Source of the DNA: Escherichia coli
GTDB taxonomy: Bacteria > Pseudomonadota > Gammaproteobacteria > Enterobacterales > Enterobacteriaceae
Assembly: GCF_001677475.2 (NCBI RefSeq)
Contig: NZ_CP015229.1
Direction: 5' to 3' (one strand)
DNA: 64,000 nucleotides
A model generated the notes under the pieces. That model saw only the letters and a program-made list of their open reading frames with translations. It searched no databases and was not told where the DNA came from. The position numbers and the translations under genes were made by a program. Numbering within the stretch: the stretch's first letter is position 1; each line of letters begins with the position of its first letter. Shown here one piece after another: positions 1,379-62,798 of this stretch.

Positions 1379-1453
1379 ATGGCGAGGGTTTAAGCAATCG
1401 AGCGGCAGCGTACTTACCCCGCAGTCCATTAGCGGGTATACTCATGCCGCATT

Positions 1454-1528
1454 GTCCTCTTAGTTAAATGGATATAACGAGCCCCTCCTAAGGGCTAATT
1501 GCAGGTTCGATTCCTGCAGGGGACACCA
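1454..1528 (+). tRNA. argW: tRNA-Arg (anticodon CCU)
   Basis: 75-nt sequence GTCCTCTTAGTTAAATGGATATAACGAGCCCCTCCTAAGGGCTAATTGCAGGTTCGATTCCTGCAGGGGACACCA with cloverleaf potential, CCT in anticodon loop and encoded CCA end. Confidence 0.9.
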
Positions 1529-1653
1529 GATACCCTTCTAACGATATCTACCTTCACCCCGTAAAAGATGGGTTTGGCAGCACACTTACCCTATATCTAC
1601 TCATTTTTACTGCAACAGGTTGAAATCTTAGCACTGTCAGAAAGCGCTGATGA

Positions 1654-1890
1654 CTAAACAACCCTGGGCCGGGCGATGTAACCATCACACAGAATCCTGA
1701 TAGCGAAATATGGCGTGACTCGATACTTCACTCCGCAATGTATTCCTTGATGAATTCGCAGGCCCGTGATACACGGGACAGGTCGCTGAATGACGACAAT
1801 GTCCTGGAAATCAGCGAACCGCGTATCCGAAGTACATTTGAGCGACTGTACCAGAACATGAATGAGGCGTTTGGATTAGGTGATTATTAG
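1654..1890 (+). other. Unassigned open frame (stop-to-stop about 78 codons, internal Met at 1738) in the segment between argW and cscB; possible gene remnant
   Basis: Frame open from TGA at 1651-1653 to TAG at 1888-1890; translation ...MYSLMNSQARDTRDRSLNDDNVLEISEPRIRSTFERLYQNMNEAFGLGDY; no family recognised. Confidence 0.2.
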
Positions 1891-1969
1891 CAGGGCTAAG
1901 CATTTTAGTATTATTATTTTCCGGTTGAGGGATATGGAGATATCGACAACAACCGGAAAAAGTTTACGT

Positions 1970-3217
1970 CTATATTGCTGAAGGAACAGGCGTTTCCATA
2001 ACTATTTGCTCGCGTTTTTTACTCAGGAAGAAAATGCCAAATAGCAACATCAGGCAGACAATACCCGAAATTGCGAAGAAAACTGTCTGGTAGCCTGCGT
2101 GGTCAAAGAGTATCCCAGTCGGCGTTGAAAGCAGCACAATCCCAAGCGAACTGGCAATTTGAAAACCAATCAGAAAGATCGTCGACGACAGGCGCCTATC
2201 AAAGTTTGCCACGCTGTATTTGAAGACGGATATGACACAAAGTGGAACCTCAATGGCATGTAACAGCTTCACTAATGAAATAATCCAGGGGTTAACGAAC
2301 AGCGCGCAGGAAAGGATACGCAACGCCATAATCACAACACCGATAAGTAATGCATTTTTTGGCCCTACCCGATTCACAAAGAAAGGAATAATCGCCATGC
2401 ACAGCGCTTCGAGTACCACCTGGAATGAGTTGAGATAACCATACAGGCGCGTTCCTACATCGTGTGATTCGAATAAACCTGCATAAAAGACAGGAAAAAG
2501 TTGTTGATCAAAAATGTTATAGAAAGACCACGTCCCCACAATAAATATGACGAAAACCCAGAAGTTTCGATCCTTGAAAACTGCGATAAAATCCTCTTTT
2601 TTTACCCCTCCCGCATCCGCCGCTACGCACTGGTGATCCTTATCTTTAAAACACATGTTGATCATCATAAATACAGCGCCAAATAGCGAGACCAACCAGA
2701 AGTTGATATGGGGACTGATACTAAAAAATATGCCGGCAAAGAACGCGCCAATAGCATAGCCAAAAGATCCCCAGGCGCGCGCTGTTCCATATTCGAAATG
2801 AAAATTTCGCGCCATTTTTTCGGTGAAGCTGTCAAGCAAACCGCATCCCGCCAGATACCCCAGGCCAAAAAAGAGCGCCCCCAGAATTAGACCTACAGAA
2901 AAATTGCTTTGCAGTAACGGTTCATAAACGTAAATCATAAACGGTCCGGTCAAGACCAGGATGAAACTCATACACCAGATGAGCGGTTTCTTCAGACCGA
3001 GTTTATCCTGAACGATGCCGTAGAACATCATAAATAGAATGCTGGTAAACTGGTTGACCGAATAAAGTGTACCTAATTCCGTCCCTGTCAACCCTAGATG
3101 TCCTTTCAGCCAAATAGCGTATAACGACCACCACAGCGACCAGGAAATAAAAAAGAGAAATGAGTAACTGGATGCAAAACGATAGTACGCATTTCTGAAT
3201 GGAATATTCAGTGCCAT
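1970..3217 (-). CDS. cscB: Sucrose:H+ symporter (MFS, LacY-like oligosaccharide:H+ symporter family)
   Basis: 415-aa 12-TM-type ORF recognised as CscB; adjacent to cscK/cscA/cscR. Confidence 0.9.
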   Translation of the reverse strand: MALNIPFRNAYYRFASSYSFLFFISWSLWWSLYAIWLKGHLGLTGTELGTLYSVNQFTSILFMMFYGIVQDKLGLKKPLIWCMSFILVLTGPFMIYVYEPLLQSNFSVGLILGALFFGLGYLAGCGLLDSFTEKMARNFHFEYGTARAWGSFGYAIGAFFAGIFFSISPHINFWLVSLFGAVFMMINMCFKDKDHQCVAADAGGVKKEDFIAVFKDRNFWVFVIFIVGTWSFYNIFDQQLFPVFYAGLFESHDVGTRLYGYLNSFQVVLEALCMAIIPFFVNRVGPKNALLIGVVIMALRILSCALFVNPWIISLVKLLHAIEVPLCVISVFKYSVANFDRRLSSTIFLIGFQIASSLGIVLLSTPTGILFDHAGYQTVFFAISGIVCLMLLFGIFFLSKKREQIVMETPVPSAI

Positions 3218-3288
3218 AATTACCTGCCTGTCGTTAAAAAATTCACGTCCTATTTAGAGATAAGAGCGACTTCGCTGTTTACTTCTCA

Positions 3289-4203
3289 CTATTCCAGTTC
3301 TTGTCGACATGGCAGCGCTGTCATTGCCCCTTTCGCCGTTACTGCAAGCGCTCCGCAACGTTGAGCGAGATCGATAATTCGTCGCATTTCTCTCTCATCT
3401 GTAGATAATCCCGTAGAGGACAGACCTGTGAGTAACCCGGCAACGAACGCATCTCCCGCCCCCGTGCTATCGACACAATTCACAGACATTCCAGCAAAAT
3501 GGTGAACTTGTCCTCGATAACAGACCACCACCCCTTCTGCACCTTTAGTCACCAACAGCATGGCGATCTCATACTCTTTTGCCAGGGCGCATATATCCCG
3601 ATCGTTCTGTGTTTTTCCACTGATAAGTCGCCATTCTTCTTCCGAGAGCTTGACGACATCCGCCAGTTGCAGCGCCTGCCGCAAACACAAGCGGAGCAAA
3701 TGCTCGTCTTGCCATAGATCTTCACGAATATTGGGATCGAAGCTGACAAAACCTCCGGCATGCCGGATCGCCGTCATCGCTGTAAATGCGCTGGTACGCG
3801 AAGGCTCAGCAGACAACGCAATTGAACAGAGATGTAACCATTCGCCATGTCGCCAGCAGGGCAAGTCTGTCGTCTCTAAAAAAAGATCGGCACTGGGGCG
3901 GACCATAAACGTAAATGAACGTTCCCCTTGATCGTTCAGATCGACAAGCACCGTGGATGTCCGGTGCCATTCATCTTGCTTCAGATACGTGATATCGACT
4001 CCCTCAGTTAGCAGCGTTCTTTGCATTAACGCACCAAAAGGATCATCCCCCACCCGACCTATAAACCCACTTATTCCGCCTAATCTGGCGATTCCCACCG
4101 CAACGTTAGCTGGCGCACCGCCAGGACAAGGCAGTAGCCGCCCGTCTGATTCTGGCAAGAGATCTACGACCGCGTCCCCTAAAACCCACACTTTGGCTGA
4201 CAT
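3289..4203 (-). CDS. cscK: Fructokinase (PfkB/ribokinase family)
   Basis: 304-aa ORF with PfkB-type N-terminal GDAVVD and C-terminal GAGDAF motifs; in csc cluster. Confidence 0.85.
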   Translation of the reverse strand: MSAKVWVLGDAVVDLLPESDGRLLPCPGGAPANVAVGIARLGGISGFIGRVGDDPFGALMQRTLLTEGVDITYLKQDEWHRTSTVLVDLNDQGERSFTFMVRPSADLFLETTDLPCWRHGEWLHLCSIALSAEPSRTSAFTAMTAIRHAGGFVSFDPNIREDLWQDEHLLRLCLRQALQLADVVKLSEEEWRLISGKTQNDRDICALAKEYEIAMLLVTKGAEGVVVCYRGQVHHFAGMSVNCVDSTGAGDAFVAGLLTGLSSTGLSTDEREMRRIIDLAQRCGALAVTAKGAMTALPCRQELE

Positions 4204-4308
4204 TTTTTTCCCTTAGATTCATCTGACTTACGCATAGTGATAAACCTCTTTTTCGCAAAATCGTCATGGATTTACTAAAACATGCATATTCGATCACAAA
4301 ACATCATA

Positions 4309-4320
4309 GTTAACGTTAAC
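4309..4320. promoter_or_regulatory. Perfect 12-bp palindrome GTTAACGTTAAC in cscK-cscA divergent promoter region; candidate CscR operator (copy 1)
   Basis: Read directly in sequence; self-complementary; second identical copy 64 bp downstream. Confidence 0.5.
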
Positions 4321-4372
4321 ATTTGTGATATTCATCGCATTTATGAAAGTAAGGGACTTTATTTTTATAAAA

Positions 4373-4384
4373 GTTAACGTTAAC
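4373..4384. promoter_or_regulatory. Perfect 12-bp palindrome GTTAACGTTAAC; candidate CscR operator (copy 2)
   Basis: Identical to 4309-4320; lies about 25 bp upstream of cscA start codon. Confidence 0.5.
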
Positions 4385-4409
4385 AATTCACCAAATTTGC
4401 TTAACCAGG

Positions 4410-5852
4410 ATGATAAAAATGACGCAATCTCGATTACATGCGGCGCAAAACGCACTAGCAAAACTTCACGAGCGCCGAGGTAACACTTTCTATCCCCATT
4501 TTCACCTCGCGCCTCCTGCCGGGTGGATGAACGATCCAAACGGCCTGATCTGGTTTAACGATCGTTATCACGCGTTTTATCAACATCACCCGATGAGCGA
4601 ACACTGGGGGCCAATGCACTGGGGACATGCCACCAGCGACGATATGATCCACTGGCAGCATGAGCCTATTGCGCTAGCGCCAGGAGACGAGAATGACAAA
4701 GACGGGTGTTTTTCAGGTAGTGCTGTCGATGACAATGGTGTCCTCTCACTTATCTACACCGGACACGTCTGGCTCGATGGTGCAGGTAATGACGATGCAA
4801 TTCGCGAAGTACAATGTCTGGCTACCAGTCGGGATGGTATTCATTTCGAGAAACAGGGTGTGATCCTCACTCCACCAGAAGGAATCATGCACTTCCGCGA
4901 TCCTAAAGTGTGGCGTGAAGCCGACACATGGTGGATGGTAGTCGGGGCGAAAGACCCAGGCAACACGGGGCAGATCCTCCTTTATCGCGGCAGTTCATTA
5001 CGTGAATGGACTTTCGATCGCGTACTGGCCCACGCTGATGCGGGTGAAAGCTATATGTGGGAATGTCCGGACTTTTTCAGCCTTGGCGATCAGCATTATC
5101 TGATGTTTTCCCCGCAGGGAATGAATGCCGAGGGATACAGTTATCGAAATCGCTTTCAAAGTGGCGTAATACCCGGAATCTGGTCGCCAGGACGACTTTT
5201 TGCACAATCCGGGCATTTTACTGAACTTGATAACGGGCATGACTTTTATGCACCACAAAGCTTTTTAGCGAAGGATGGTCGGCGTATTGTTATCGGCTGG
5301 ATGGATATGTGGGAATCGCCAATGCCCTCAAAACGTGAAGGCTGGGCAGGCTGCATGACGCTGGCGCGCGAGCTATCAGAGAGCAATGGCAAACTCCTAC
5401 AACGCCCGGTACACGAAGCTGAGTCGTTACGCCAGCAGCATCAATCTATCTCTCCCCGCACAATCAGCAATAAATATGTTTTGCAGGAAAACGCGCAAGC
5501 AGTTGAGATTCAGTTGCAGTGGGCGCTGAAGAACAGTGATGCCGAACATTACGGCTTACAGCTCGGTACTGGAATGCGGCTGTATATTGATAACCAATCT
5601 GAGCGACTTGTTTTGTGGCGGTATTACCCACACGAGAATTTAGACGGCTACCGTAGTATTCCCCTCCCGCAGCGTGACACACTCGCCCTAAGGATATTTA
5701 TCGATACATCATCCGTGGAAGTATTTATTAACGACGGGGAAGCGGTGATGAGTAGTCGAATCTATCCGCAGCCAGAAGAACGGGAACTGTCGCTTTATGC
5801 CTCCCACGGAGTGGCTGTGGTGCAACATGGAGCACTCTGGCTACTGGGTTAA
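4410..5852 (+). CDS. cscA: Sucrose-6-phosphate hydrolase / invertase (glycoside hydrolase family 32)
   Basis: 480-aa ORF with GH32 N-terminal WMNDPNG catalytic motif and RDP motif (FRDPKV). Confidence 0.9.
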   Translation: MIKMTQSRLHAAQNALAKLHERRGNTFYPHFHLAPPAGWMNDPNGLIWFNDRYHAFYQHHPMSEHWGPMHWGHATSDDMIHWQHEPIALAPGDENDKDGCFSGSAVDDNGVLSLIYTGHVWLDGAGNDDAIREVQCLATSRDGIHFEKQGVILTPPEGIMHFRDPKVWREADTWWMVVGAKDPGNTGQILLYRGSSLREWTFDRVLAHADAGESYMWECPDFFSLGDQHYLMFSPQGMNAEGYSYRNRFQSGVIPGIWSPGRLFAQSGHFTELDNGHDFYAPQSFLAKDGRRIVIGWMDMWESPMPSKREGWAGCMTLARELSESNGKLLQRPVHEAESLRQQHQSISPRTISNKYVLQENAQAVEIQLQWALKNSDAEHYGLQLGTGMRLYIDNQSERLVLWRYYPHENLDGYRSIPLPQRDTLALRIFIDTSSVEVFINDGEAVMSSRIYPQPEERELSLYASHGVAVVQHGALWLLG

Positions 5853-5859
5853 CATAATA

Positions 5860-6861
5860 TCAGGTGGAACAACGGATCAACAGCGGGCAAGGGATCCGCG
5901 TCACTCTTCCCCCTTCACGACCTTCAATAATATGCAATGCAGCTTCCCGCCCGATAATGTCATGTGGAAGCTGAATTGTGGTCAGCGGCGGTAAAAACAG
6001 ATGCCCGACGCCAACCAGATTATCAAAGCCCATTACGGCGACATCCTGCGGGATACGTACCCCCTTCGCCAGGAGAACCTGATAAGCGACAAAGGCTGCG
6101 CGATCGTTACCACATATCAGAACATCAAAATCTGGTTTGCCAGATTGGAAGTGGGCATTGAGTAAACTTGCGAGATCGGTGTAGTGATCATCACCTGTTG
6201 CCATGTGAAATTGTTTCACCTCAGCCAGATCTCGTCCAGCATCACGCCAGGCCTGCTCAAATCCCTGCCGACGATACCCTGTTGCCAACGCACTTTCCGG
6301 TAGCCAGAAGCATAACGGTTGACGATAGCCCGCCGCGAGCAAATGCTGTGTTGATTCATATTGTGCAGTGTAATCATCAGGGATATAACTGGGTAACACT
6401 GGGTCATCCGCCACACAGTTCGCCAATACAATATTTTCACCATACAGAGACTCAGGCAGCGTGATATGTCGCAGCCCCATTGTAGTATAGATAATGCCAT
6501 CCGGACGGTGGGCAAGCAGCTGACGTGCCGCGCGGGCAGCGTCATCTTCAGAAAAAATATTGATTAAAAAACTATTCCAGCCGAACTCGCTGGCGGTTTG
6601 CTCAATGGCAAGCAGAATATCAACAGAGAAAGGAGTGGTAGCAGTGTCCTGCGCCAGCACGGCGAGAGTCGACGGCTTACGTCCTTGAGCGCGCATCTTA
6701 CGGGCGGAAAGATCAGGAACATAATTCAGGGTCTGGATTGCCTGCAATACGCGGTCACGCGTTGCAGGACGCACAGATTCTGCATTATGCATCACCCGGG
6801 AGACTGTCATCATCGACACTCCCGCCAGGCGTGCGACATCCTTTAATGAAGCCATACCCAT
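5860..6861 (-). CDS. cscR: LacI-family transcriptional repressor of csc genes
   Basis: HTH (MASLKDVARLAGVSMMTVSRVMHN) then periplasmic-binding-protein-like sugar domain; 397-aa ORF in track is probably 5'-extended, start placed at internal Met (6861 or 6855). Confidence 0.85.
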   Translation of the reverse strand: MGMASLKDVARLAGVSMMTVSRVMHNAESVRPATRDRVLQAIQTLNYVPDLSARKMRAQGRKPSTLAVLAQDTATTPFSVDILLAIEQTASEFGWNSFLINIFSEDDAARAARQLLAHRPDGIIYTTMGLRHITLPESLYGENIVLANCVADDPVLPSYIPDDYTAQYESTQHLLAAGYRQPLCFWLPESALATGYRRQGFEQAWRDAGRDLAEVKQFHMATGDDHYTDLASLLNAHFQSGKPDFDVLICGNDRAAFVAYQVLLAKGVRIPQDVAVMGFDNLVGVGHLFLPPLTTIQLPHDIIGREAALHIIEGREGGRVTRIPCPLLIRCST

Positions 6862-7097
6862 GCCGTTTGCCGTAAAACGGGCACTGTAGCAGAAACAGAC
6901 GTCACTGGCGAGATCCAACGATATTCTTAACGCCCTATCACCCGACACGGCAATACAATAAAAAATAACAATAATTGCCGGATAATTGTACCCAATTCCG
7001 CCCCTGTTCTCGCCAACGAGTAACCATATAGGCAAGTAAGTAAAACATGCCAACTGACATCGCCAACCTGGATAAGAAAATATAAATATGGATCATT

Positions 7098-29261: not shown

Positions 29262-30119
29262 ATGAAAGCACCAGGCTTGCCCGCCGATCAACAATTTTTC
29301 GCCGATCTGTTCAGCGGCCTGGTGCTTAACCCGCAACTACTGGGGCGCGTCTGGTTTGCCAGCCAGCCTGCCTCGTTGCCGGTGGGCAGTTTATGTATTG
29401 ATTATCCCCGTCTGGATATCGTGCTGCGCGGCGAATACGGCAATCTGCTGGAAGCAAAGCAGCAACGTTTGGTGGAAGGAGAAATGCTGTTTATTCCGGC
29501 GCGCGCGGCTAATTTACCGGTCAACAACAAACCGGTGATGCTCTTAAGCCTGGTGTTCGCACCGACCTGGCTTGGGTTATCGTTTTACGATAGCCGCACC
29601 ACGTCGTTGTTGCACCCTGCTCGCCAGATCCAGCTTCCCAGCATGCAACGCGGTGAAGGTGAAGCGATGCTTACCGCCCTCACCCATCTTAGCCGTTCGC
29701 CGCTGGAGCAAAATATCATTCAGCCGCTGGTGTTAAGTTTGCTGCATCTTTGCCGTAACGTGGTGAATATGCCGCCGGGCAATTCGCAGCCGCGCGGCGA
29801 TTTTCTCTATCACAGCATTTGTAACTGGGTTCAGGATAATTATGCCCAGCCGCTCACCCGCGAGAGCGTGGCGCAGTTTTTTAATATCACGCCCAATCAT
29901 CTGTCAAAACTGTTTGCTCAGCATGGAACGATGCGTTTTATCGAATATGTGCGTTGGGTGCGAATGGCGAAGGCGAGGATGATTTTGCAGAAATATCATC
30001 TGTCGATTCATGAAGTGGCGCAGCGTTGCGGCTTTCCGGATAGCGACTATTTTTGTCGCGTCTTCCGGCGTCAGTTTGGCCTGACGCCGGGAGAGTACAG
30101 CGCCCGTTTTCAGGGCTAA
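29262..30119 (+). CDS. ypdC: AraC/XylS-family transcriptional regulator
   Basis: 285-aa ORF with C-terminal AraC-type double HTH (HLSKLF...FPDSDYFCRVFRRQFGLTPGEY). Confidence 0.8.
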   Translation: MKAPGLPADQQFFADLFSGLVLNPQLLGRVWFASQPASLPVGSLCIDYPRLDIVLRGEYGNLLEAKQQRLVEGEMLFIPARAANLPVNNKPVMLLSLVFAPTWLGLSFYDSRTTSLLHPARQIQLPSMQRGEGEAMLTALTHLSRSPLEQNIIQPLVLSLLHLCRNVVNMPPGNSQPRGDFLYHSICNWVQDNYAQPLTRESVAQFFNITPNHLSKLFAQHGTMRFIEYVRWVRMAKARMILQKYHLSIHEVAQRCGFPDSDYFCRVFRRQFGLTPGEYSARFQG

Positions 30120-30121
30120 CA

Positions 30122-32616
30122 TTAGAAGGTTAATTCCGTTTCCAGCAGAGTCAGGATGCTTTGTGCGTCTTGCGCGGCGAACAGCGACTGGCGGAAGTTT
30201 TTATTCACCAGTTTGCGCGCCAGCTGCGAGAAGACCTTCACATGGTTCATCCCTTCGCTAGCGTCCAGCGTCAGCATGATCACCAGTTCGACTTCGCCCA
30301 TTTCTGACTGCCAGTCAACCGGTTTCGCCAGCCGGGCAATGCTGATACTGGAATGACGGATCCACTGAGATTTGGTGTGCGGGATCGCCACGCCAAAACC
30401 AACGCCAGTAGTAACAATCTCTTCCCGTTGCCAGACATCCTCTTCCAGCTCGAACGGATGTTCAGTGCGCCCGTTAACGCCGAGGTTACCGCACAGGAAC
30501 TGGATCGCCTGCTCTTTATTGCTAAAGGCCTGATCAACGAAGATATTCTCCAGCGCCAACAATGGGTGAACGTCTTCTTCCGGCGTAAAGGCGGTGAGTA
30601 ACGCTTCAATTTCCTGCGCGCTGCGACATTCACACGCCTGACGTGCCAGTTCCCGACACGCCTCGCTATCCAGTTGACGAAGCTGGCTTTTCACCGCCGG
30701 AATGCGCGGGCTACTCATACTCAGCTCATCCAGGCCCAGCCCAAGCAGTAGCGGCAGATAACGGCTTTCACCGCCCAGTTCACCGCAAATGCCTACCCAT
30801 TTGCCCCGCTGATGCGCAGTGGTAACTATTTGCTGCAACATGCGCAGGAACGATGGCGTAATCGGGTTATATAGCGGCGATACGCGCGGGTTATTACGAT
30901 CGACCGCATACAGATACTGGGTCATATCGTTGGAGCCGATACTGAAGAAATCGACCTCATCGCAGAAGTGATCGATGATGTAGCACACCGACGGCACTTC
31001 CACCATGATACCCAGCGTAATCGTCTCTGCATGACGCAGGCCATCGCGCTTAAGCTCAACGATCGCTTTTTGGATCTCGCCCTTCACCCATAAGATCTGA
31101 TCGAGGCTGTGGACCATCGGGATCATCAACTGGGCGTTGCCGAAACTGGCGGCGCGCAAAATGGCCCGCAGTTGAGTGCGGAACAGGCCAGCAAATTCCG
31201 GGTAAATACGTACCGCGCGATAGCCGAGGAACGGGTTCTCTTCCTGGGGAATATTCAGATAAGGAATGCTTTTATCGCCGCCGATGTCCATTGTGCGGAA
31301 GATAATCGGCTTGTCGCCCGCTGCCAGTAGCACCTGCTGGTAGGCTTCAAATTGCTCCTGCTCGTCCGGCGCGCTGTCGCGATCCATATAGAGCATTTCG
31401 GTACGGAACAGCCCGACGCCTTCCGCGCCGTTGGCAAACGCGCCAGGCGCTTCCAGAGCGGTGCCAATATTCGCCGCGATATCAATACGCTTGTTATCAC
31501 GGGAATAAGCCAGCTGCGCGGCAGCCTGCGCCTGTTGTTTTTGGCGTTTATCTGCCAGCGTCTGCGCGACCTGATAATAACCGCTCACCGCGTCATTCGG
31601 GTTAATCGCCAGCACGCCGCACTGGGCGTCAAGCACTGCAGGTTGCCCGGCATAGCGCGCGATCGCATCCAGCGGCAGGCCGCTCAAAACCGGGATCGCC
31701 GAGGCACGGGCCAGAATCAGGGTATGCGAGGTGCGCCCGGTTTTCTCCAGAATCATACCTGCAAGATTTTTTAAATCGAGGCTCAAAAACTGGCTTGGGG
31801 TTAAATCCTCGGCCACCAGAATAGTCGGTTTTTCCAGCACCAGATTGTTGCGCGGCTTCAGTTCCGGCCAGGTGATATGCAGCAACTGTTCGCTAACATC
31901 GCGAATGTCGCTAACACGTTCGCGCAGATAATCGCTGGCAGAAGCAGAAAGCTTGGCGCAAACCTGCTCCATATTGCTGATGATCGCCGCCCCAGTCCCT
32001 GATGCTGTTCCGCCATAAGGCGACGGATATTGCCCGCGAACTCATCATCCTGAATCAGCGACAAATGGGCGCTGAGGATGGTTTTGCTTTCGCCGTCACG
32101 CTCGCGCAACTGCTGGTTCAGTTGCTCGGCAAGCGTTGCCAGGCTGTGCTCCAGCCAGGTGGAATCTTGCGCACTGGCCGGGATCGCCCGATAACTGTCG
32201 AGGCTGTCGCTCTGTAACAGGGTCAGTGTACCCACGCCGACGCCGCTTGCCAGCACATTGCCGTACAGTAAATCCGGGTTAAGGCGGCTTAATGAACGCG
32301 GCAGCGGATGCGCCGTCAGTTCTGCCTGCGTCGGCTGAACGCTGTCGCTGTCGATAAAGCGCACCTGGATGTACTCTTCCAGCACGCGCCGCGCCTGCTC
32401 TTCATCGCTGCCGCTAATGTTCAGGCTGCAACTGTCATTAAATAAGGTGCCGGTGCCAATCAGCGCCAGTGAACTTTTGGCATCGGCCTTTGCGTTCTGG
32501 CGATGGTTAATAAAAGTGATTTCGCTTTGCCACTGGCTGCACTGCTCTTTAAGTTCCCACGCCGGACGAGCATGTAGACCGTTAGGCAAAGGACAGAGAA
32601 ATTGAATCGTTAACAT
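30122..32616 (-). pseudogene. fryA: PTS multiphosphoryl transfer protein FryA (HPr-EI-EIIA fusion), apparently disrupted by a 1-bp frameshift
   Basis: Two overlapping minus-strand ORFs in different frames (32616-31858, HPr plus EI N-terminus; 31972-30122, EI His domain GRTSHTLILARAS plus EIIA). Frames rejoin if one G is added to the GGGG run at plus-strand C-tract 31990-31993. Confidence 0.6.
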
Positions 32617-32640: not shown

Positions 32641-33678
32641 TCATCTGAAATCCGTCAGTTGAACAACCGTCTCACGCGTAAGACGTTGAATAAGGGCAGA
32701 TAAAAGCTGCTGCATCTGCAAGATGTCGCGGCAGTCGGCAATCGATGCGGCGCAATGTCCATGGCGGGTTGCTGGCCCCATCACCACTGTGGGTACGCCA
32801 GTACCGGTTAAGTGAACCGCTCCACCGTCCGTGCCGCCGTTACTGAACATATCCGCCTGTAACGGCACGCCAATTTCTGCCGCCACGGTTTCGATCCAGG
32901 CGGTGAGTTTTGGCGGCGCAATCAGTGACTTGTCGCTTAACACCAGCATCGGGCCGTTACCAATCTGGCGATGGTTAGCCGTGCCATAATCAAAGTTTTT
33001 CGCCCAGCAGGCGGTATCAAGCACAATGGCGACGTCCGGCGACACCGCGCGGGTGGCAGTTTGCCCGCCGCGTAATCCCACCTCTTCGCTCGAACTTGCC
33101 ACCAGCCACACTTCCGCAGGCAGTTCGGCGTCGTGCAGCTCACGTAGTAACGTCACCAGCAGATAGCAACCGAGGCGGTCATCAAAAGCTTTCCCCATCA
33201 CTCGCTGGTGGGGGAGAACCTGAAAAGTAGTATCAAACGTGACGCGATCGCCTGGGCGAATTCCCGCCTGCATCACTTCGTCATACGAGCGCGCACCAAT
33301 GTCCACGCGCATGGCGCTGACATCATTCCCCTGCCGGTCGCCGTCAAGCAGGCCGGGAATTTTGCACTCTTTACGGGTGGTGATGCGCACCGGCTGCAAC
33401 TGGCGGGCAGCCATGCGCACGTTGCCAACCGGCAGCACGTCAATAGCGCCTTCGCGGGAGATGCTGCGCACCATAAATCCCACTTCGTCCATATGCGCAC
33501 AGATCATCACTTTCGGACCTGTCGATTCATTGAGGCGGATCAGCACCGATCCCAGACCATCAAATCGCACTTCTTTTTGCAGGCGATCCGCTTCTTCCAG
33601 CAGGATCTGCCGCACTTCCTGTTCCGAGGAGGCGATCGCATCGGCCTCGCTCAACGCTTTTAATAGCGATAAATCCAT
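32641..33678 (-). CDS. ypdE: M42-family aminopeptidase
   Basis: 345-aa ORF with M42 metal-binding architecture; 1-bp overlap with ypdF. Confidence 0.85.
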
Positions 33679-34763
33679 TATGCCTCTCCCGTGAGCAACA
33701 CTGTTTTCGGCATGGCGTAGAGCACTTCTGCGCCTTGCGGGGTAACCAGCACAACATCTTCGATGCGCACGCCCCCTTGCCCTGGCAAATAAATCCCCGG
33801 CTCTACGGTCAGTAACATGCCAGGCTGTAGCGTCGTGGTGTCCCTCGGTGAAAAACGCGGATCTTCATGGACTTCAATGCCGATAGCATGACCGGTGTTG
33901 TGGCCAAAATAGTCGCCATAACCGGCTTCTGTAATGACCCGGCGCGCGGCATCGTCAACCTGCTGGCAGCGCACGCCGGGGCGAATCGCGGAGATTGCCG
34001 CGAGCTGTGCCTGCAGGACAATCTGATAGACGTTAAACAGCGGGTGAGATTCGGCGCTCACCCCTTCGCCATTCACCAGCAAGGTGCGCGTCATATCAGA
34101 GCAGTAGCCCTGATATAGCGCACCGAAATCGAGAGTGACAAACTCGCCCGCTGCAACAATCTTGTCGCTGGCTTTGCCGTGCGGCAGCGCCCCACGCCAG
34201 CCACTGGCGACAATGGTGTCAAAAGAGGCTTTTTCTGCGCCCTGCTGGCGCATAAACCACTCCAGTTCAGCGGCTATCTCGCGCTCGCTCATCCCCGCCT
34301 GAATAAAGCGGCGAATATGCTCCGCTCCGCGATCGGCAATCCCACAGGCGAGGCGGATTTTCTCCACCTCCTCTGGCGTTTTGATTTGCCGCAGCACATC
34401 CGGCGTGGCGCTTACCAGTTTCGCATTGAGTTCAGACTGCCAGCGGTGCGCGGTTTCCCAACTCACCTGCTGGCCTTCAAAACCGAGCGTTTGCAACTGC
34501 TCATCGGCAATGATTTGCCTGACGACGGTTGTAAGCGTGTGCGTCGCGTCAAGCAAATGCAGCGGGTAGCCTTGCGTGCGAGCTTCCACATCCGCGTAAT
34601 AGCGCGAATCCACCAGAATGTGCGCACTTTCACGGCTAATCACCACATAACCTGATCCGGTGGAGATCCCCAGATGCGGCTGTTTGTTCTGCCGTGAGGA
34701 GAGAAGCACTGCATCCAGTTGTTGCGCCTTAAGCCAGTCGCGCAGCGAAGCGAGTAATGTCAT
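33678..34763 (-). CDS. ypdF: M24B-family Xaa-Pro aminopeptidase
   Basis: 361-aa ORF with creatinase/prolidase-fold C-terminal domain ([13 protein letters not shown]). Confidence 0.85.
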
Positions 34764-34777
34764 CTGGATTTTCCTTC

Positions 34778-36025
34778 TTACAGGCTATCGATTAACAATT
34801 TACCTTTGCGGAACATCATCAGACGCAGGAACACCACCATCAGCGCAGTTATGACTGCCCCCAGCGCGATCCCCGCCATATAGACGCCCAGGTTAGTGAC
34901 CAGCGGCCATGCCCAGATAGCGGATTCCGGGAACCATTGCACTGCGCCCAGCCAGACAGCGGCGGTTGAGCCGACAATAGCACCGACCATATACGACGGA
35001 ATGGCGGTGATGGGACTTTCCAGCGCAAACGGAATCGCACCTTCACTGATCCCCATAAACGCCAGGAACATCGCGGTTTTACCCTGCGGATAAAGTTGGG
35101 CGTTGAACAGACGTTTGCCGGTTAAACGGCGGTCGATAATGGTCGCCAGACCCAGACCAATCGGCGGAATAACAATAGCGATGGAACGCGCGGTAACCGG
35201 TAATACGTGGTCAGTGGTAAAGCTGAAGGCAACGAAACCAGCTGCTTTGTTGATCGGGCCACCAAGGTCGATTGCTGTCGCCGCGGCGATCCCCATCGCG
35301 TACATCAGCGCGCCCTTCTCACCTGCGGCAGTCAGCACGGTACGGATACCGCCGTTGATCCAGCCACCAAAGGGGGTGATGACGTAGTACATCGCCAACA
35401 TGACAAAAATGGCGGAAAGAATCGGTAGCAAAAATGTGGTTTTGAACGCTAACAGGAATTCCGGTAACTGGATTTTCTGGTTCATCCACTTCACAAGGTA
35501 ACCAGCAACGATAGAAATAATCAGGGCACCAATGAAGGTGGACGGCACCGGCGAAGAGGTCGCCCATTGCATAGTGCTGGGATCGAAGTTCAGCAGTTGC
35601 GTCGGCTGGGTAGACATCAACCCGCCGATAAAACCAGCCGGGAACGCCAGTTTGCCACCGATAGAGTTCGCCACAAATGCAGCAAACATCGGAATGGCAA
35701 AACCAAACAACACGCCGCCGAAGGACTGCGACAACCAGGCAAATTTCAGTAAGGAGAGGTCGAAACCGGAGAATTTCCCGCTATTAAGAGCATCCATGAT
35801 GCCGATATCAGCAGGAATTTTAAGCCAGCTATAAGCAATCAGCTGGCTGAAAGCGAGGATCACACCGCCCATAATTAAGGTCGGCACCATGCGTGAAATC
35901 CCTGACATCACATGCTGCGGGAGTTCACCCCAGAAGCTGCTTTTAGAGGCCTGCGGATTCTTAACTGCCGCTGCCGCACCGGATGCGCCAGGCACAACGG
36001 TTGCACTGCGTTTTTTAATGGCCAT
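34778..36025 (-). CDS. fryC: PTS fructose-like EIIC permease
   Basis: 415-aa polytopic membrane ORF of the PTS EIIC fructose family. Confidence 0.85.
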
Positions 36026-36046
36026 AACAATTATCCCTGTCGAATA

Positions 36047-36373
36047 TTACTGTTGTTCAGAGGCAATCATCTCTTCGATTTCTTTGATGATGCCCGCAGC
36101 GTTTTTAATTGCGTCCTGCAAAGTGATTTCATAAACGTCGCGTGATTCGAAACGTTCGTTATCTTCCGGGGTAACTGCCACTGAGTGGATGATGATGGTC
36201 GCTTCGGCGATATCCTGCACCGTCAGGCGATTCTGGATGCCGTCCGCGCCCTGAGTTTCAATTTTCACTTCATAGCCTGCTTCCACCGCCGCTTCTTCCA
36301 GCGCCTGGGCTGCCATAAAGGTGTGAGCCAGACCCATAGGGCAGGCACATAAAGCAATCAGTTTCTTACTCAT
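36047..36373 (-). CDS. fryB: PTS fructose-like EIIB component
   Basis: Start placed at MSKKLIALCACPMGLAHT (active-site Cys motif); track ORF is 5'-extended. Confidence 0.8.
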   Translation of the reverse strand: MSKKLIALCACPMGLAHTFMAAQALEEAAVEAGYEVKIETQGADGIQNRLTVQDIAEATIIIHSVAVTPEDNERFESRDVYEITLQDAIKNAAGIIKEIEEMIASEQQ

Positions 36374-44824: not shown

Positions 44825-44900
<76 letters not shown>

Positions 44901-47598: not shown

Positions 47599-47674
47599 GG
47601 GTGATTAGCTCAGCTGGGAGAGCACCTCCCTTACAAGGAGGGGGTCGGCGGTTCGATCCCGTCATCACCCACCA
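47599..47674 (+). tRNA. valU: tRNA-Val (anticodon UAC), copy 1
   Basis: 76-nt GGGTGATTAGCTCAGCTGGGAGAGCACCTCCCTTACAAGGAGGGGGTCGGCGGTTCGATCCCGTCATCACCCACCA. Confidence 0.9.
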
Positions 47675-47718
47675 ACTACTTTATGTAGTCTCCGCCGTGT
47701 AGCAAGAAATTGAGAAGT

Positions 47719-47794
47719 GGGTGATTAGCTCAGCTGGGAGAGCACCTCCCTTACAAGGAGGGGGTCGGCGGTTCGATCCCGTCATCACCCACCA
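47719..47794 (+). tRNA. valX: tRNA-Val (anticodon UAC), copy 2
   Basis: Identical 76-nt sequence to copy 1, separated by a 44-bp spacer. Confidence 0.9.
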
Positions 47795-47798
47795 CTTC

Positions 47799-47874
47799 GG
47801 GTCGTTAGCTCAGTTGGTAGAGCAGTTGACTTTTAATCAATTGGTCGCAGGTTCGAATCCTGCACGACCCACCA
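47799..47874 (+). tRNA. lysV: tRNA-Lys (anticodon UUU)
   Basis: GGGTCGTTAGCTCAGTTGGTAGAGCAGTTGACTTTTAATCAATTGGTCGCAGGTTCGAATCCTGCACGACCCACCA. Confidence 0.9.
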
Positions 47875-47982: not shown

Positions 47983-48867
47983 CTACTGTGTCAATGCAGC
48001 CAACAGCTTAACCATCGCGGGCGTCACCTGCTGTGTTTCATAAACAATATATAAATCTGCAGGGATGCGCTGTTTGAGCGGACGGAAAATGACACCTGGC
48101 CAGTTCATTTGTGCGTAGCTGTCCGCTATCAATGTGATACCAATGCCCATACTGACCATGGCGAGTACCGTTTGCGGTTCATTAACTTCGCGAATAACAA
48201 CCGGTGAAAATCCCACCTGCTGGCAAACTCGCTGCAAAAAATCCCAGTCAGTGTACACGGGCGGCATTGTAACAAAATACTCGTCACGTAGCGCTTCCAG
48301 CGGGACGGTGGAAAATGATGAGAAATGATGCTCTTCAGGCATCGCCACCAGAAACGCCGATTCATGCAACCGTAAGCTGGTAAAACCTGCAGGTGGTTCT
48401 GTTGCCATTCGCCAGATACCGGCATCGAGTTCACGTCGTTCCAGCAGGGTCATTTGCATCGCGGGCATCTTTTCGCGAAAAAGAACGTCAACGTTAGGAT
48501 TTTCCCTGAGGAATCGCCGCATAACCGGGCGCATCCGTCCCCACATTGCCGTTCCCACTACGCCGAGTTCAATCCGCCCTGCTTCTCCCCGACCTATTTG
48601 TTCAACCCGAGCCAATACATTATTAGCATTCACCAGCAATCGACGCGATTCTTCCATCAAGATTTTGCCCGCGTGTGTCAGTACGACGCTGCGCGAATGG
48701 CGAATAAAAAGCTGCGTGCCGAGTTGATTTTCCAGCTCTTTAATATGAATACTGAGCGGAGGCTGAGACATATTTAAACGCGCTGCTGCGCGACCAAAAT
48801 GCAACTCTTCCGCTACGGCAAGAAAATAACGGAGCAACTTAAGATCTGTTCTGTATACGCGTTCCAT
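47983..48867 (-). CDS. xapR: LysR-family activator of xanthosine operon
   Basis: Start placed at MERVYRTDLKLLRYF (about 294 aa); N-terminal LysR HTH. Confidence 0.85.
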   Translation of the reverse strand: MERVYRTDLKLLRYFLAVAEELHFGRAAARLNMSQPPLSIHIKELENQLGTQLFIRHSRSVVLTHAGKILMEESRRLLVNANNVLARVEQIGRGEAGRIELGVVGTAMWGRMRPVMRRFLRENPNVDVLFREKMPAMQMTLLERRELDAGIWRMATEPPAGFTSLRLHESAFLVAMPEEHHFSSFSTVPLEALRDEYFVTMPPVYTDWDFLQRVCQQVGFSPVVIREVNEPQTVLAMVSMGIGITLIADSYAQMNWPGVIFRPLKQRIPADLYIVYETQQVTPAMVKLLAALTQ

Positions 48868-48907
48868 AATTAAGTGCTCCATATAATAAATACATCGTAT
48901 TAAATTA

Positions 48908-49069
48908 TCATGGCATAAAGTATTTCACCACCAGATATCCGACATACATAAACACAATGGATAATATACCTGGTAATACATTTGGTACAGGAATAGGCAA
49001 GCGCACGATTGTAAACAAAGCACCAATGCCAAAACCAACGCCGGAAGAAAATAAAATATCTTTCACTAA
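48908..49069 (-). CDS. Candidate small hydrophobic protein (53 codons, GTG start), unannotated
   Basis: Minus-strand ORF VKDILFSSGVGFGIGALFTIVRLPIPVPNVLPGILSIVFMYVGYLVVKYFMP with AAGG Shine-Dalgarno-like sequence about 8 nt upstream; two predicted hydrophobic segments; not in ORF track (no ATG). Confidence 0.25.
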   Translation of the reverse strand, partial: LVKDILFSSGVGFGIGALFTIVRLPIPVPNVLPGILSIVFMYVGYLVVKYFMP

Positions 49070-49118
49070 TTAACCTTTATCATAAAAGCAGCTCTGAAGA
49101 GCAGAGCTGCGAATCCTT

Positions 49119-50375
49119 TTAATGAGCCACCGCTCGATGCTTTATCTTTTCAGGGTCATGATTATATTTAAACCCAAAGAAAAATATCACTGCGAGAAAA
49201 AGAGCATATCCTGCAAACACCAGCCAGATAGTTTGCCAGTCTTTTACGCCATCCACCGAAAAGTAATCTACTGCCATACCGCTCAGAATCGAGCCAATCC
49301 ATGCGCCGACACCATTTACCATGGTCATAAAGAGCCCCTGCGCGCTGGCACGAATGCTGGAATCAACTTCCTGTTCGACAAATACCGAACCAGAAATATT
49401 GAAGAAATCGAATGCACAGCCATAAACAATCATCGACAGCAGCAGCAAAATAAATCCGGTTGTTGACGGATCGCCATAGGCGAAGAAGCCAAAGCGCAGC
49501 GTCCAGGCCACCATACTCATCAGCATGACGGTTTTAATTCCAAATCGCTTTAAAAAGAATGGGATAGTCAGTATAAAGCCCACTTCTGCCATCTGTGAAA
49601 CCGACAGTAAAATGGAGGGATATTTCACCACAAAACTGTCAGCAAACTCCGGGTTACGGGCGAAATCATGTAGGAACGGATTACCAAAAACGTTGGTAAT
49701 TTGCAGTACCGCACCCAGCATCATGGCAAAGAGGAAAAAGATGGCCATGCGTGGATTTTTAAACAGCACGAAGGCATCCAGACCCAGCTTGCTGGCAAGC
49801 GATGTGGTCGTTTTTTTCTCCGCAACCGGAATCTTCGGCAAAGTCAGCGCATAAGCCGACAGCAGCAATGACGCACCGGACGCGATATACAGCTGCAGAC
49901 TACTCAATTCCAGATGCAGCAGGCTTACTGCCCACATCGCGACAATGAACCCCACCGTACCAAAAACGCGAATGGGCGGGAAAGCGGTCACCGGGTCAAG
50001 CCCTGCCTGGGCAAGACAGGAATAAGAGACGCTGTTCGATAACGCAATAGTCGGCATAAACGCCATCGCATTGACTAACATCACCCAAAACATCATATCC
50101 GGATCAGTTACGGATGCCGCATAAAAAAGTACGCCCGCACACACCAGGTGACATAGCATGTATGCACGTTCTGCGCGCAGCCATTTGTCTGCGATGATCC
50201 CCATTATACCAGGCATAATAATCGCGGCGATCCCTTTGGAACTGTAAACCATGCCAACATTAGCGCCGGTGAAATGAAGGGTATTAATCATGTAAGAACC
50301 GAGGGTAACCAGCCAGCTCCCCCAGATAAAATATTGCAAAAAGGACATTACCTTTAAGCGCAAAGCGATGCTCAT
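49119..50375 (-). CDS. xapB: Xanthosine:H+ symporter (MFS nucleoside permease)
   Basis: 418-aa MFS ORF. Confidence 0.9.
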   Translation of the reverse strand: MSIALRLKVMSFLQYFIWGSWLVTLGSYMINTLHFTGANVGMVYSSKGIAAIIMPGIMGIIADKWLRAERAYMLCHLVCAGVLFYAASVTDPDMMFWVMLVNAMAFMPTIALSNSVSYSCLAQAGLDPVTAFPPIRVFGTVGFIVAMWAVSLLHLELSSLQLYIASGASLLLSAYALTLPKIPVAEKKTTTSLASKLGLDAFVLFKNPRMAIFFLFAMMLGAVLQITNVFGNPFLHDFARNPEFADSFVVKYPSILLSVSQMAEVGFILTIPFFLKRFGIKTVMLMSMVAWTLRFGFFAYGDPSTTGFILLLLSMIVYGCAFDFFNISGSVFVEQEVDSSIRASAQGLFMTMVNGVGAWIGSILSGMAVDYFSVDGVKDWQTIWLVFAGYALFLAVIFFFGFKYNHDPEKIKHRAVAH

Positions 50376-50435
50376 AATCGTTTCCTTGTCGCATCATATG
50401 GCCTCACTCAGTGAGGCCGTTTATTGTTGTTTTAC

Positions 50436-51269
50436 TCAGGCAATTTTGCGCAGAAAGCCGCAAATAAGATTAATAAAGTTTTGCTTTGAGAGTTCCGCTG
50501 CTGCCAGCGTTTGGGCATGAGAAAGCTTCACGTCACTCAGACCTTCCGCCATGTTGGTAATCGCAGAGACCGCAACGACTTTAAGGTCGCAATGGCGAGC
50601 TGAAATAACCTCAGGCACCACAGACATACCAACAACATCCCCACCAATAATTTGCATCATGCGAATTTCCGCCGCAGTCTCGAAATTCGGCCCCGGATAC
50701 GAGACGAACACGCCCTCCGTCAGAGAGAAACCCTCTTCTTTTGCCACTTTTTGTAACAGTGCGCGGTATTCCGCATCGTAGGCATTTGCCAGTGAGAAGA
50801 AACGCTCGCCAAAACGATCATCGTTAAGACCCACCATCGGCGTACCTGGCATGGCGTTGATATGATCTTTCAATGCGACCAGGCTGCCTGCCCCCACTTC
50901 CGGACGCAGCGAGCCTGCCGCATTGGTGCAGAACAGTAGCTCGCAGCCCAGCAGCTTAAAGGTACGAATTGCGTCAGTCATAATGGTCATTCCACGACCT
51001 TCGTAGAAATGTCCGCGACCTTTCATACATACCACCGGTACGCCCTGGAGATGGCCCAGCACTAACTCCCCCGCATGACCATGTACCGTACTTACCGGGA
51101 AGCCCGGCAGCTTTTCGTAGGAAATTGCGACAGCGTTCTCAATCTGATCGGCCAGCGCGCCCAGCCCGGAACCTAAAATAAAGGCCACTCGTGGCGTGAA
51201 ATCAGGTTTATAAGTCTTGATAATATCTATGCAAAACAGCGGGTTATGAGAAAATTGAACCTGAGGCAT
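50436..51269 (-). CDS. xapA: Xanthosine (purine nucleoside) phosphorylase II
   Basis: 277-aa PNP/MTAP family ORF. Confidence 0.9.
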   Translation of the reverse strand: MPQVQFSHNPLFCIDIIKTYKPDFTPRVAFILGSGLGALADQIENAVAISYEKLPGFPVSTVHGHAGELVLGHLQGVPVVCMKGRGHFYEGRGMTIMTDAIRTFKLLGCELLFCTNAAGSLRPEVGAGSLVALKDHINAMPGTPMVGLNDDRFGERFFSLANAYDAEYRALLQKVAKEEGFSLTEGVFVSYPGPNFETAAEIRMMQIIGGDVVGMSVVPEVISARHCDLKVVAVSAITNMAEGLSDVKLSHAQTLAAAELSKQNFINLICGFLRKIA

Positions 51270-51517
51270 ATATATCCTTTTTCTGTAGGGTGGAATCTAA
51301 CGCCTTTTTATAGCGAGGTTGTCCCGGCTCTTACCAATACACTTTTCTCACGCATTCAATAGCGATTCGATATCGATGGATTTATATCTTTTCTCTATTA
51401 ATCCACGGTAAAAACTGTATTGGCGATATTAATTCCTTTGCATTAACAATATGTCGTTTTTAGCAAACCACTTTATTAAGCAATCTACTAATAACGATCG
51501 GCATAGGGAATTATGCT

Positions 51518-52282
51518 ATGAAAAAACATCTTTTAACTCTGACACTTTCCTCTATATTAGCGATACCTGTTATATCTCATGCAGAATTTAAAGGCGGTTT
51601 TGCAGATATCGGCGTGCATTATCTGGACTGGACCAGCCGGACTACCGAAAAATCGTCGACCAAATCACACAAAGATGATTTTGGTTATCTTGAAATTGAA
51701 GGTGGCGCTAACTTTAGTTGGGGAGAAATGTACGGGTTCTTCGACTGGGAAAACTTCTATAACGGTCGCCATAATAAACCAGGTAGCGAGCAGCGTTATA
51801 CCTTTAAAAATACCAACCGTATTTACCTGGGTGACACCGGATTTAATCTTTACCTGCACACGTATGGCACCTACGGGTCTGCGAATCGTGTGAATTTCCA
51901 CGACGATATGTTCCTGTACGGTGTCGGCTACAATTTCACCGGCAGCGGTTGGTGGTTCAAACCGTTCTTTGCTAAGCGTTATACAGATCAAACCTATTAC
52001 ACTGGCGACAACGGCTATGTCGCCGGCTGGGTTGCAGGTTACAACTTTATGCTGGGCAGCGAGAAATTCACTCTTACCAACTGGAACGAGTACGAGTTTG
52101 ACCGTGACGCTACCTATGCAGCGGGTAATGGCGGTAAAGAAGGGCTGAATGGCGCAGTTGCACTGTGGTGGAATGCAACATCACACATCACTACGGGGAT
52201 TCAGTATCGATATGCGGATGACAAACTGGGCGAAGATTTTTACCAGGATGCGATAATCTACTCCATCAAATTTAACTTCTGA
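51518..52282 (+). CDS. yfeN: Putative outer-membrane beta-barrel protein
   Basis: 254-aa ORF with signal peptide and C-terminal aromatic residue (F); alternating-hydrophobic beta pattern. Confidence 0.75.
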   Translation: MKKHLLTLTLSSILAIPVISHAEFKGGFADIGVHYLDWTSRTTEKSSTKSHKDDFGYLEIEGGANFSWGEMYGFFDWENFYNGRHNKPGSEQRYTFKNTNRIYLGDTGFNLYLHTYGTYGSANRVNFHDDMFLYGVGYNFTGSGWWFKPFFAKRYTDQTYYTGDNGYVAGWVAGYNFMLGSEKFTLTNWNEYEFDRDATYAAGNGGKEGLNGAVALWWNATSHITTGIQYRYADDKLGEDFYQDAIIYSIKFNF

Positions 52283-60468: not shown

Positions 60469-62196
60469 ATGATTTCAGGCATTTTAGCATCCCCGGGTAT
60501 CGCTTTCGGTAAAGCTCTGCTTCTGAAAGAAGACGAAATTGTCATTGACCGGAAAAAAATTTCTGCCGACCAGGTTGATCAGGAAGTTGAACGTTTTCTG
60601 AGCGGTCGTGCCAAGGCATCAGCCCAGCTGGAAACGATCAAAACGAAAGCTGGTGAAACGTTCGGTGAAGAAAAAGAAGCCATCTTTGAAGGGCATATTA
60701 TGCTGCTCGAAGATGAGGAGCTGGAGCAGGAAATCATAGCCCTGATTAAAGATAAGCACATGACAGCTGACGCAGCTGCTCATGAAGTTATCGAAGGTCA
60801 GGCTTCTGCCCTGGAAGAGCTGGATGATGAATACCTGAAAGAACGTGCGGCTGACGTACGTGATATCGGTAAGCGCCTGCTGCGCAACATCCTGGGCCTG
60901 AAGATTATCGACCTGAGCGCCATCCAGGATGAAGTCATTCTGGTTGCCGCTGACCTGACGCCGTCCGAAACCGCACAGCTGAACCTGAAGAAGGTGCTGG
61001 GTTTCATCACCGACGCGGGTGGCCGTACTTCCCACACCTCTATCATGGCGCGTTCTCTGGAACTACCTGCTATCGTGGGTACCGGTAGCGTCACCTCTCA
61101 GGTGAAAAATGACGACTATCTGATTCTGGATGCCGTAAATAATCAGGTTTACGTCAATCCAACCAACGAAGTTATTGATAAAATGCGCGCTGTTCAGGAG
61201 CAAGTGGCTTCTGAAAAAGCAGAGCTTGCTAAACTGAAAGATCTGCCAGCTATTACGCTGGACGGTCACCAGGTAGAAGTATGCGCTAACATTGGTACGG
61301 TTCGTGACGTTGAAGGTGCAGAGCGTAACGGCGCTGAAGGCGTTGGTCTGTATCGTACTGAGTTCCTGTTCATGGACCGCGACGCGCTGCCCACTGAAGA
61401 AGAACAGTTTGCTGCTTACAAAGCAGTGGCTGAAGCGTGTGGCTCGCAGGCGGTTATCGTTCGTACCATGGACATCGGCGGCGACAAAGAGCTGCCATAC
61501 ATGAACTTCCCGAAAGAAGAGAACCCGTTCCTCGGCTGGCGCGCTATCCGTATCGCGATGGATCGTAAAGAGATCCTGCGCGATCAGCTCCGCGCTATCC
61601 TGCGTGCCTCGGCTTTCGGTAAATTGCGCATTATGTTCCCGATGATCATCTCTGTTGAAGAAGTGCGTGCACTGCGCAAAGAGATCGAAATCTACAAACA
61701 GGAACTGCGCGACGAAGGTAAAGCGTTTGACGAGTCAATTGAAATCGGCGTAATGGTGGAAACACCGGCTGCCGCAACAATTGCACGTCATTTAGCCAAA
61801 GAAGTTGATTTCTTTAGTATCGGCACCAATGATTTAACGCAGTACACTCTGGCAGTTGACCGTGGTAATGATATGATTTCACACCTTTACCAGCCAATGT
61901 CACCGTCCGTGCTGAACTTGATCAAGCAAGTTATTGATGCTTCTCATGCTGAAGGCAAATGGACTGGCATGTGTGGTGAGCTTGCTGGCGATGAACGTGC
62001 TACACTTCTGTTGCTGGGGATGGGTCTGGACGAATTCTCTATGAGCGCCATTTCTATCCCGCGCATTAAGAAGATTATCCGTAACACGAACTTCGAAGAT
62101 GCGAAGGTGTTAGCAGAGCAGGCTCTTGCTCAACCGACAACGGACGAGTTAATGACGCTGGTTAACAAGTTCATTGAAGAAAAAACAATCTGCTAA
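60469..62196 (+). CDS. ptsI: PTS enzyme I (phosphoenolpyruvate-protein phosphotransferase)
   Basis: 575-aa ORF with [21 protein letters not shown] phospho-His region. Confidence 0.95.
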
Positions 62197-62769: not shown

Positions 62770-62798
62770 GCCCATCGGCGCCATTTTTTATGCTTCCG
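62770..62798. terminator. Bidirectional terminator between crr and convergent pdxK (AAAAATGGCGCC-CATC-GGCGCCATTTTTT)
   Basis: Perfect stem with A/T flanks; overlaps pdxK stop codon. Confidence 0.7.

Follow-up and report, generated by a model that had tools for sequence, protein, structure and literature searches.

In the 64,000-nt stretch of Escherichia coli DNA analysed here (the window), fryA lacks one base in a short run of G and is best read as a pseudogene of the FryA-type fused phosphotransferase system (PTS) family rather than as a functional member of it. Its run of four G (G4) is very probably a real, vertically inherited loss-of-function allele that arose when replication strand slippage shortened a run of five (G5). 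As a lineage-specific frameshift pseudogene in a known gene it is ordinary and not novel in kind.

A one-base deletion divides fryA between two reading frames

In the ORF listing of the window fryA appears as two overlapping minus-strand ORFs in different frames, 31858-32616 and 30122-31972. These are exactly the coordinates given in an earlier sequence-only reading of this DNA, which had ascribed the split to a run, the plus-strand CCCC at 31990-31993, that is one base short. The first ORF encodes 252 aa, its native part ending with ...RRLMAEQHQGLG and being followed by 43 out-of-frame residues; the second encodes 616 aa and begins MEQVCAK.... A FryA-type fused PTS protein is expected to be encoded by a single uninterrupted frame of about 831 codons, and this frame is interrupted in the window. 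Alignment with three intact E. coli fryA genes from complete genomes revealed a single gap, GGGG versus GGGGG: the window reads CTGGGGCGG and the references read CTGGGGGCGG, and this one base is the sole length difference between them. All 40 matches listed for a 601-nt query around the run in complete E. coli genomes span 602 nt. The shortness of the run, G4 against G5 in intact orthologues, was thus read directly from the alignment. Insertion of one base into the run yields a 2496-nt ORF of 831 codons with the terminal stop only and no other defect, in line with the roughly 830 codons that the sequence-only reading had expected from one added G. Hence, compared to its intact orthologues, the gene carries a 1-bp deletion that brings a stop codon into frame 43 codons on, the signature of a frameshift pseudogene.

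The features of the locus are listed below. The ORFs of fryB, fryC, ypdF and ypdE are those of the window, their names were taken from syntenic annotated references, and the gene calls and Pfam assignments of the fryB-ypdE stretch (32641..36373) were also obtained from an identical contig (L015, see below). The deletion site was placed by alignment to intact references and by direct reading.

29262..30119, plus strand: ypdC, AraC-family regulator, convergent with fryA
30122..31989, minus strand: 3' portion of fryA in the original downstream frame, codons 210-831 and stop, one base short; rest of the enzyme I (EI) N-domain, PEP-binding domain and fructose-type EIIA domain
30377-30379, minus strand: His747 codon of fryA, EIIA domain, in AIPHTK
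30785-30787, minus strand: Cys611 codon of fryA, PEP-binding domain
31724-31726, minus strand: catalytic His298 codon of fryA
31858..31989, minus strand: out-of-frame tail of the fryA 5' ORF, 43 codons (RRSSAIW...SPGRN) and premature TGA
31990..31993, minus strand: G4 homopolymer (CCCC on the plus strand), site of the 1-bp deletion, by comparison ancestrally G5
31990..32616, minus strand: 5' portion of fryA in the native frame, codons 1-209; HPr-like domain, linker and first ~90 residues of the EI N-terminal helical subdomain
32572-32574, minus strand: HPr His15 codon of fryA, in NGLHARP
32641-33678, minus strand: ypdE, intact
33678-34763, minus strand: ypdF, intact
34778-36025, minus strand: fryC (EIIC), intact
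36047-36373, minus strand: fryB (EIIB), intact

With fryB, fryC, ypdF and ypdE upstream of fryA and ypdC convergent to it, the window has the gene order of the known locus, glk, fryB, fryC, ypdF, ypdE, fryA and the convergent ypdC-ypdB-ypdA. The gene corresponds in position to that of E. coli FryA (YpdD), the putative multiphosphoryl transfer protein of the fryBC-ypdFE-fryA operon, which PGAP names 'ptsP: phosphoenolpyruvate--protein phosphotransferase', and shares 95-97% DNA identity with it. Once repaired, the window protein resembles E. coli FryA in its length of 831 aa, its HPr, EI and EIIA(Fru) domains and all of its catalytic residues; it differs in the missing G in codons 208-210, which splits the frame, and the allele is at least 3% divergent from that of every complete E. 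coli genome. No gene of the transcription unit follows fryA, so that a polar effect of the frameshift is not to be expected. In annotation, the locus should be recorded as one frameshifted pseudogene and not as two genes, and the missing base should be left as it is rather than be treated as a mistake of assembly.

The break falls within the enzyme I module

In FryA, HPr, enzyme I and EIIA(Fru) are fused into one phosphoryl-transfer protein, which belongs to the putative FryABC PTS permease. Pfam assigned HPr (PF00381) and the first part of PEP-utilisers_N (PF05524) to the first ORF, and the PEP-utilizers mobile domain (PF00391), PEP-utilizers_C (PF02896) and EIIA_2 (PF00359) to the second. 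The HPr domain with its His15 spans residues 5-84 and scores 55.7 bits with the Pfam PTS-HPr model (cut-off 23); with the NCBIfam HPr family model it scores 39.5, below the cut-off of 47.9. An enzyme I module with catalytic His and Cys is complete after repair at the DNA level, and the repaired protein passes the NCBIfam enzyme I model TIGR01417 (503 bits, cut-off 341.7); in the unrepaired sequence the module is disrupted at residue 209. The C-terminal EIIA domain, including its active-site His, is recognized by PF00359 (112.7 bits) and TIGR00848 (140.4 versus 103.5).

The sequence-only reading considered the two frames alignable to the PtsI protein encoded in the same window (general PTS enzyme I, 60469-62196), and this holds: FryA 117-683 aligns to PtsI 1-574 with 39% identity, and FryA His298 and Cys611 align to PtsI His189 and Cys502. 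Both proteins have the GRTSH motif (at the His189 equivalent) and the CGEL cysteine, but in FryA an N-terminal HPr-like domain and a C-terminal fructose-type EIIA domain are fused to EI. Because its score lies below the PtsI equivalog cut-off (474 versus 824 bits), FryA is regarded as a paralogue and not as PtsI itself. The alignment places the frame break after FryA Gly209, opposite PtsI Asp101/Ala102 (QHQGLG/AAIISNME in FryA, KHMTAD/AAAHEVIE in PtsI), a site which in the EI structure belongs to the helical subdomain of the N-domain that binds HPr. The break is upstream of the catalytic His and parts HPr His15 from His298, Cys611 and the EIIA His747.

These positions suggest the following course of events. 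Replication strand slippage at codons 208-210 would have converted G5 to G4, and translation would depart from the native frame after Gly209, read 43 unrelated codons and stop. The HPr-like domain with His15 would be left on a 252-aa fragment with a junk tail, and His298, Cys611 and His747 would remain in the downstream frame, for which no ribosome-binding site is obvious. The relay from PEP via EI, HPr and EIIA to FryB/FryC would thereby be abolished, the fryB and fryC products would lose their dedicated phosphoryl donor, and the Fry permease would be unphosphorylated and inactive in the lineage of the window. Since the break lies within the EI N-domain, we infer a loss of FryA activity, and the Fry phosphorelay of this lineage is most likely dead. 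The prediction to be drawn is that this rare E. coli lineage is without a Fry PTS branch.

Leaky or split expression could in principle retain some Fry function, either by a -1 slip of the ribosome or by two fragments complementing each other, which we regard as very unlikely. Several features would permit it. The run reads CUG-GGG-CGG, in which CGG is a rare Arg codon, and on G4 a tRNA-Gly in the P site would re-pair perfectly one base back; read from the sequence, a -1 slip would give ...L-G-A-A-I..., the same as the wild type. The four catalytic residues are all intact, as is the remainder of the fryA ORF, and low-level protein expression from bacterial pseudogenes has been described for Salmonella (PMC9122581). 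However, the site does not conform to the canonical X XXY YYZ slippery heptamer, and folding revealed no stimulatory RNA structure downstream of the run, the RNA 3' of it being no more structured than shuffled controls (MFE -29.9 kcal/mol versus a shuffle mean of -32.6, z = +0.85). As the orthologues are in frame, no evolved frameshift signal is to be expected. A slip of tRNA-Gly by -1 on G4 would, speculatively, allow trace read-through at best. The possible restart codons, ATG 31972 (Met216) and TTG 31885 (Leu245), both have no Shine-Dalgarno-like motif upstream, and any product initiated there would be without part of the EI N-domain. The location of the break in a folded helical subdomain and not in an inter-domain linker makes complementation between fragments unlikely. 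Programmed ribosomal frameshifting is not supported, as the orthologues are single-frame genes with G5, a canonical heptamer is absent and the downstream RNA does not exceed shuffled sequence in stability.

The deletion is shared by separately assembled genomes

The sequence-only reading had left the choice between a real inactivating mutation and a base-calling error, and the evidence supports the former. G4 is found in the NCBI assemblies GCA_018682815.1 (L015), which is 100% identical to the window over 21,764 bp, and GCA_002516285.1 (L016), which differs by one SNP at window position 27343, as well as in the Logan re-assembly of SRR15047267 (L004), which carries one different SNP at 30737. 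The three are independent assemblies told apart by private SNPs. Since they share G4 and differ in these SNPs, the deletion predates the SNPs and was inherited within the clone. Exact copies of two truncated products, the 252-aa N-terminal one and the 587-aa C-terminal one that is the gene-caller output from the G4 allele, are present in the public protein collection; each was found on 15 contigs read, some from NCBI and some re-assembled by Logan from SRA runs, and at least 20 samples are listed for the L004 contig. This support for a real deletion is at the level of assemblies, and the assemblies that share it are near-identical (0-1 SNP in 12-22 kb) and represent one clone.

An assembly or base-calling artefact, with G5 and an intact fryA in the actual genome, is scarcely credible in the face of these data. 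Homopolymer indels are a classic sequencing error, all assemblies with the G4 allele of the window belong to one clone, and a technology-specific systematic error could recur across runs. Nevertheless, G4 was recovered in two NCBI assemblies of different accession series and in the re-assembly of a separate SRA run, the truncated products recur on the 15 contigs, and a run of 4-5 bases is short for a systematic error. Moreover, in the ~58 kb that could be aligned with annotated strain Combat11I9, no net frame-breaking indel other than that of fryA was found in coding sequence. The remaining indels either lie between genes or, in yfeO and yfeD, are alignment artefacts that are compensated, and other runs in the window, such as T6/T7 at 62784 (intergenic), differ from Combat11I9 only outside genes. 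The search for further homopolymer-associated frameshifts that had been proposed along with the sequence-only reading therefore produced none with a net effect in coding sequence over this distance, and the window assembly does not appear to be indel-prone.

Ancestral state, lineage and constraint

Outgroups were obtained from a scan of species-representative genomes with a pattern that tolerates both G4 and G5. In both Escherichia whittamii and Escherichia sp. E1V33 (~93% identity to the window in each case), as well as in the complete E. coli genomes inspected, fryA is intact and its run is G5. These comparisons indicate G5 as the ancestral state of the run. In all of these relatives fryA is one intact gene, which disposes of the possibility, named in the sequence-only reading, that related strains carry two separate genes here. 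The exact repaired 831-aa FryA is absent from a collection of 15 billion proteins, so that no intact sister allele was found with which to date the event.

Among 5,426 complete genomes the best identity to the window was 96.8% over the 601 bp around the site. The best values among complete E. coli genomes were 97.2% over 24 kb and 98.9% at the housekeeping end, from ligA to pdxK. By these values the window belongs to a rare, deep-branching E. coli lineage, which is represented by GCA_018682815.1 and GCA_002516285.1. Shigella was considered as a source on account of its wealth of pseudogenes; no insertion sequence came to light incidentally in the window, and fryA has the only coding frameshift found.

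Pairwise dN/dS of fryA in seven Escherichia alleles ranged from 0.02 to 0.06 (about 0.04), which points to strong purifying selection on the gene. Because of this constraint, fryA is normally a working gene. The sequence-only reading had spoken of a cryptic PTS branch: this is apt insofar as function and substrate of FryABC have no assignment (PMC5364489), but it undersells a gene with such low dN/dS values. On its private branch the window allele has accumulated 13 synonymous and 5 non-synonymous changes, compared to, for example, 10/2, 6/1 and 48/3 on those of intact alleles; the branch is slightly richer in replacements, though counts of this size do not suffice as proof of relaxed constraint. 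These counts, together with the finding of no second lesion in the gene, suggest that the inactivation is fairly recent. Natural fryA knock-outs of this kind, paired with isogenic G5 repairs, could aid the search for a Fry substrate or phenotype.

Other lesions in fryA and recurrence at the run

Further fryA lesions were found among truncated FryA products in the same protein clusters. At the same run, two contigs (L009 and L010) carry G6, and three (L017, L018 and L019) carry G4 on two or three further backgrounds, with alleles only 94.4-96.2% identical to that of the window; each of these three comes from a single Logan sample and may reflect a sequencing error. Elsewhere in the gene, three other lineages have nonsense codons: one at codon 270 was found on L011-13 and is indexed in 79 blocks of the protein collection, and the others occur at positions 245 (L020) and 250 (L021). 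L020 and L021 give the same 572-aa C-terminal product in spite of their different stop positions. All of these lesions stand on haplotypes different from that of the window and are events independent of its deletion. Another 252-aa product (P0002/L014) was left uncounted, as it derives from a 1.8-kb metagenome contig of 1.9x coverage; its lesion differs, with the C after the run lost and other odd changes, and was treated as unreliable.

The G4 alleles share only 32-58 identical nt around the run, and the nearest complete genomes of L009, L017 and L019 are identical to them over 601 bp except for one G. A recombined segment common to the G4 alleles was rejected on account of these short identical tracts and of nearest relatives that differ by one G. 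Because of the same two observations we attribute the changes to independent slippage and not to a shared haplotype: the run apparently slipped elsewhere in E. coli at least twice more to G4 and once to G6. The run is accordingly described, as far as these alleles indicate, as a mild mutational hotspot and not as a new kind of feature, and the repeated lesions at one short G run offer a small example of homopolymer-driven convergent gene loss.

That the run serves as a phase-variable (contingency) switch turning the Fry PTS reversibly on and off has next to no probability: contraction to G4 and expansion to G6 do occur in different E. coli backgrounds, but the tract, ancestrally of five bases, is far shorter than typical contingency tracts of 7-8 or more bases, in the clone of the window only G4 is seen, the contigs found including no G5 revertant and the 15-billion-protein collection no repaired protein, the 602-nt span of all 40 complete-genome matches listed is consistent with G5, 0 of 5,426 complete genomes exactly match any of four tested indel-bearing backgrounds, and strong purifying selection implies that fryA is normally kept ON.

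A different proposal, of low probability, is that fryA is lost recurrently at the G5 run and that some niches positively select for strains without the Fry PTS. Hints in this direction are the several apparently independent G4 events, the one G6 event and the three different nonsense codons of natural isolates, together with a spontaneous 48-bp deletion in fryA of Mt56, a derivative of BL21(DE3), that improved growth after prolonged culture in LB (PMC5364489); that lesion is in-frame, unlike the frameshift in the window. If the proposal were true, fryA would count among the genes that are 'antagonistically pleiotropic' and inactivated convergently, although most lineages keep it under strong purifying selection. 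A few independent indels are, however, to be expected at any G5 run of a dispensable gene, given the very many public E. coli runs, and with this number of sequenced genomes a claim of selection on fryA loss needs a phylogenetic count first.

In L012, one of the contigs with the codon-270 nonsense mutation, the adjoining sensor kinase gene ypdA (L012:6260-7635) is called as 118 aa plus 430 aa and not as 565 aa. Either another pseudogene close to fryA or a fault of the assembly may account for this.

Other features of the window

Comparison with Combat11I9 revealed further differences outside the fry locus. The window has one tRNA-Ala(GGC) at 44825-44900 versus two in Combat11I9, and at 47599-47874 two tRNA-Val(UAC) and a tRNA-Lys versus three Val and a Lys. 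Tandem tRNA repeat copies cross-match in BLAST between the two sequences. The shorter arrays could mean that copies were truly lost through recombination, or that a short-read assembly collapsed the tandem repeats.

At the beginning of the window, the ORF at 446-1378 is a putative member of the formate/nitrite-transporter family, with weak NCBIfam matches that are below cut-off. It is followed by one listed tRNA feature:

1454-1528: tRNA-Arg(CCT)

After this tRNA lies a sucrose (csc) cluster, within 446-7053, which is syntenic with the MFS transporter, kinase, cscA and LacI-type regulator genes of Combat11I9. At 6917 the window has a 12-bp insertion relative to Combat11I9, which by the annotation of that strain does not fall within the regulator CDS.

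In the broad gltX-yfeR region Combat11I9 has an IS200/IS605 TnpB element and a FlxA-like gene instead of four ORFs of the window. These four ORFs, at 47983-52282, encode 299, 418, 277 and 254 aa, are without counterpart in Combat11I9, and may correspond to xapR, xapB, xapA and yfeN of K-12, whose sizes they match.
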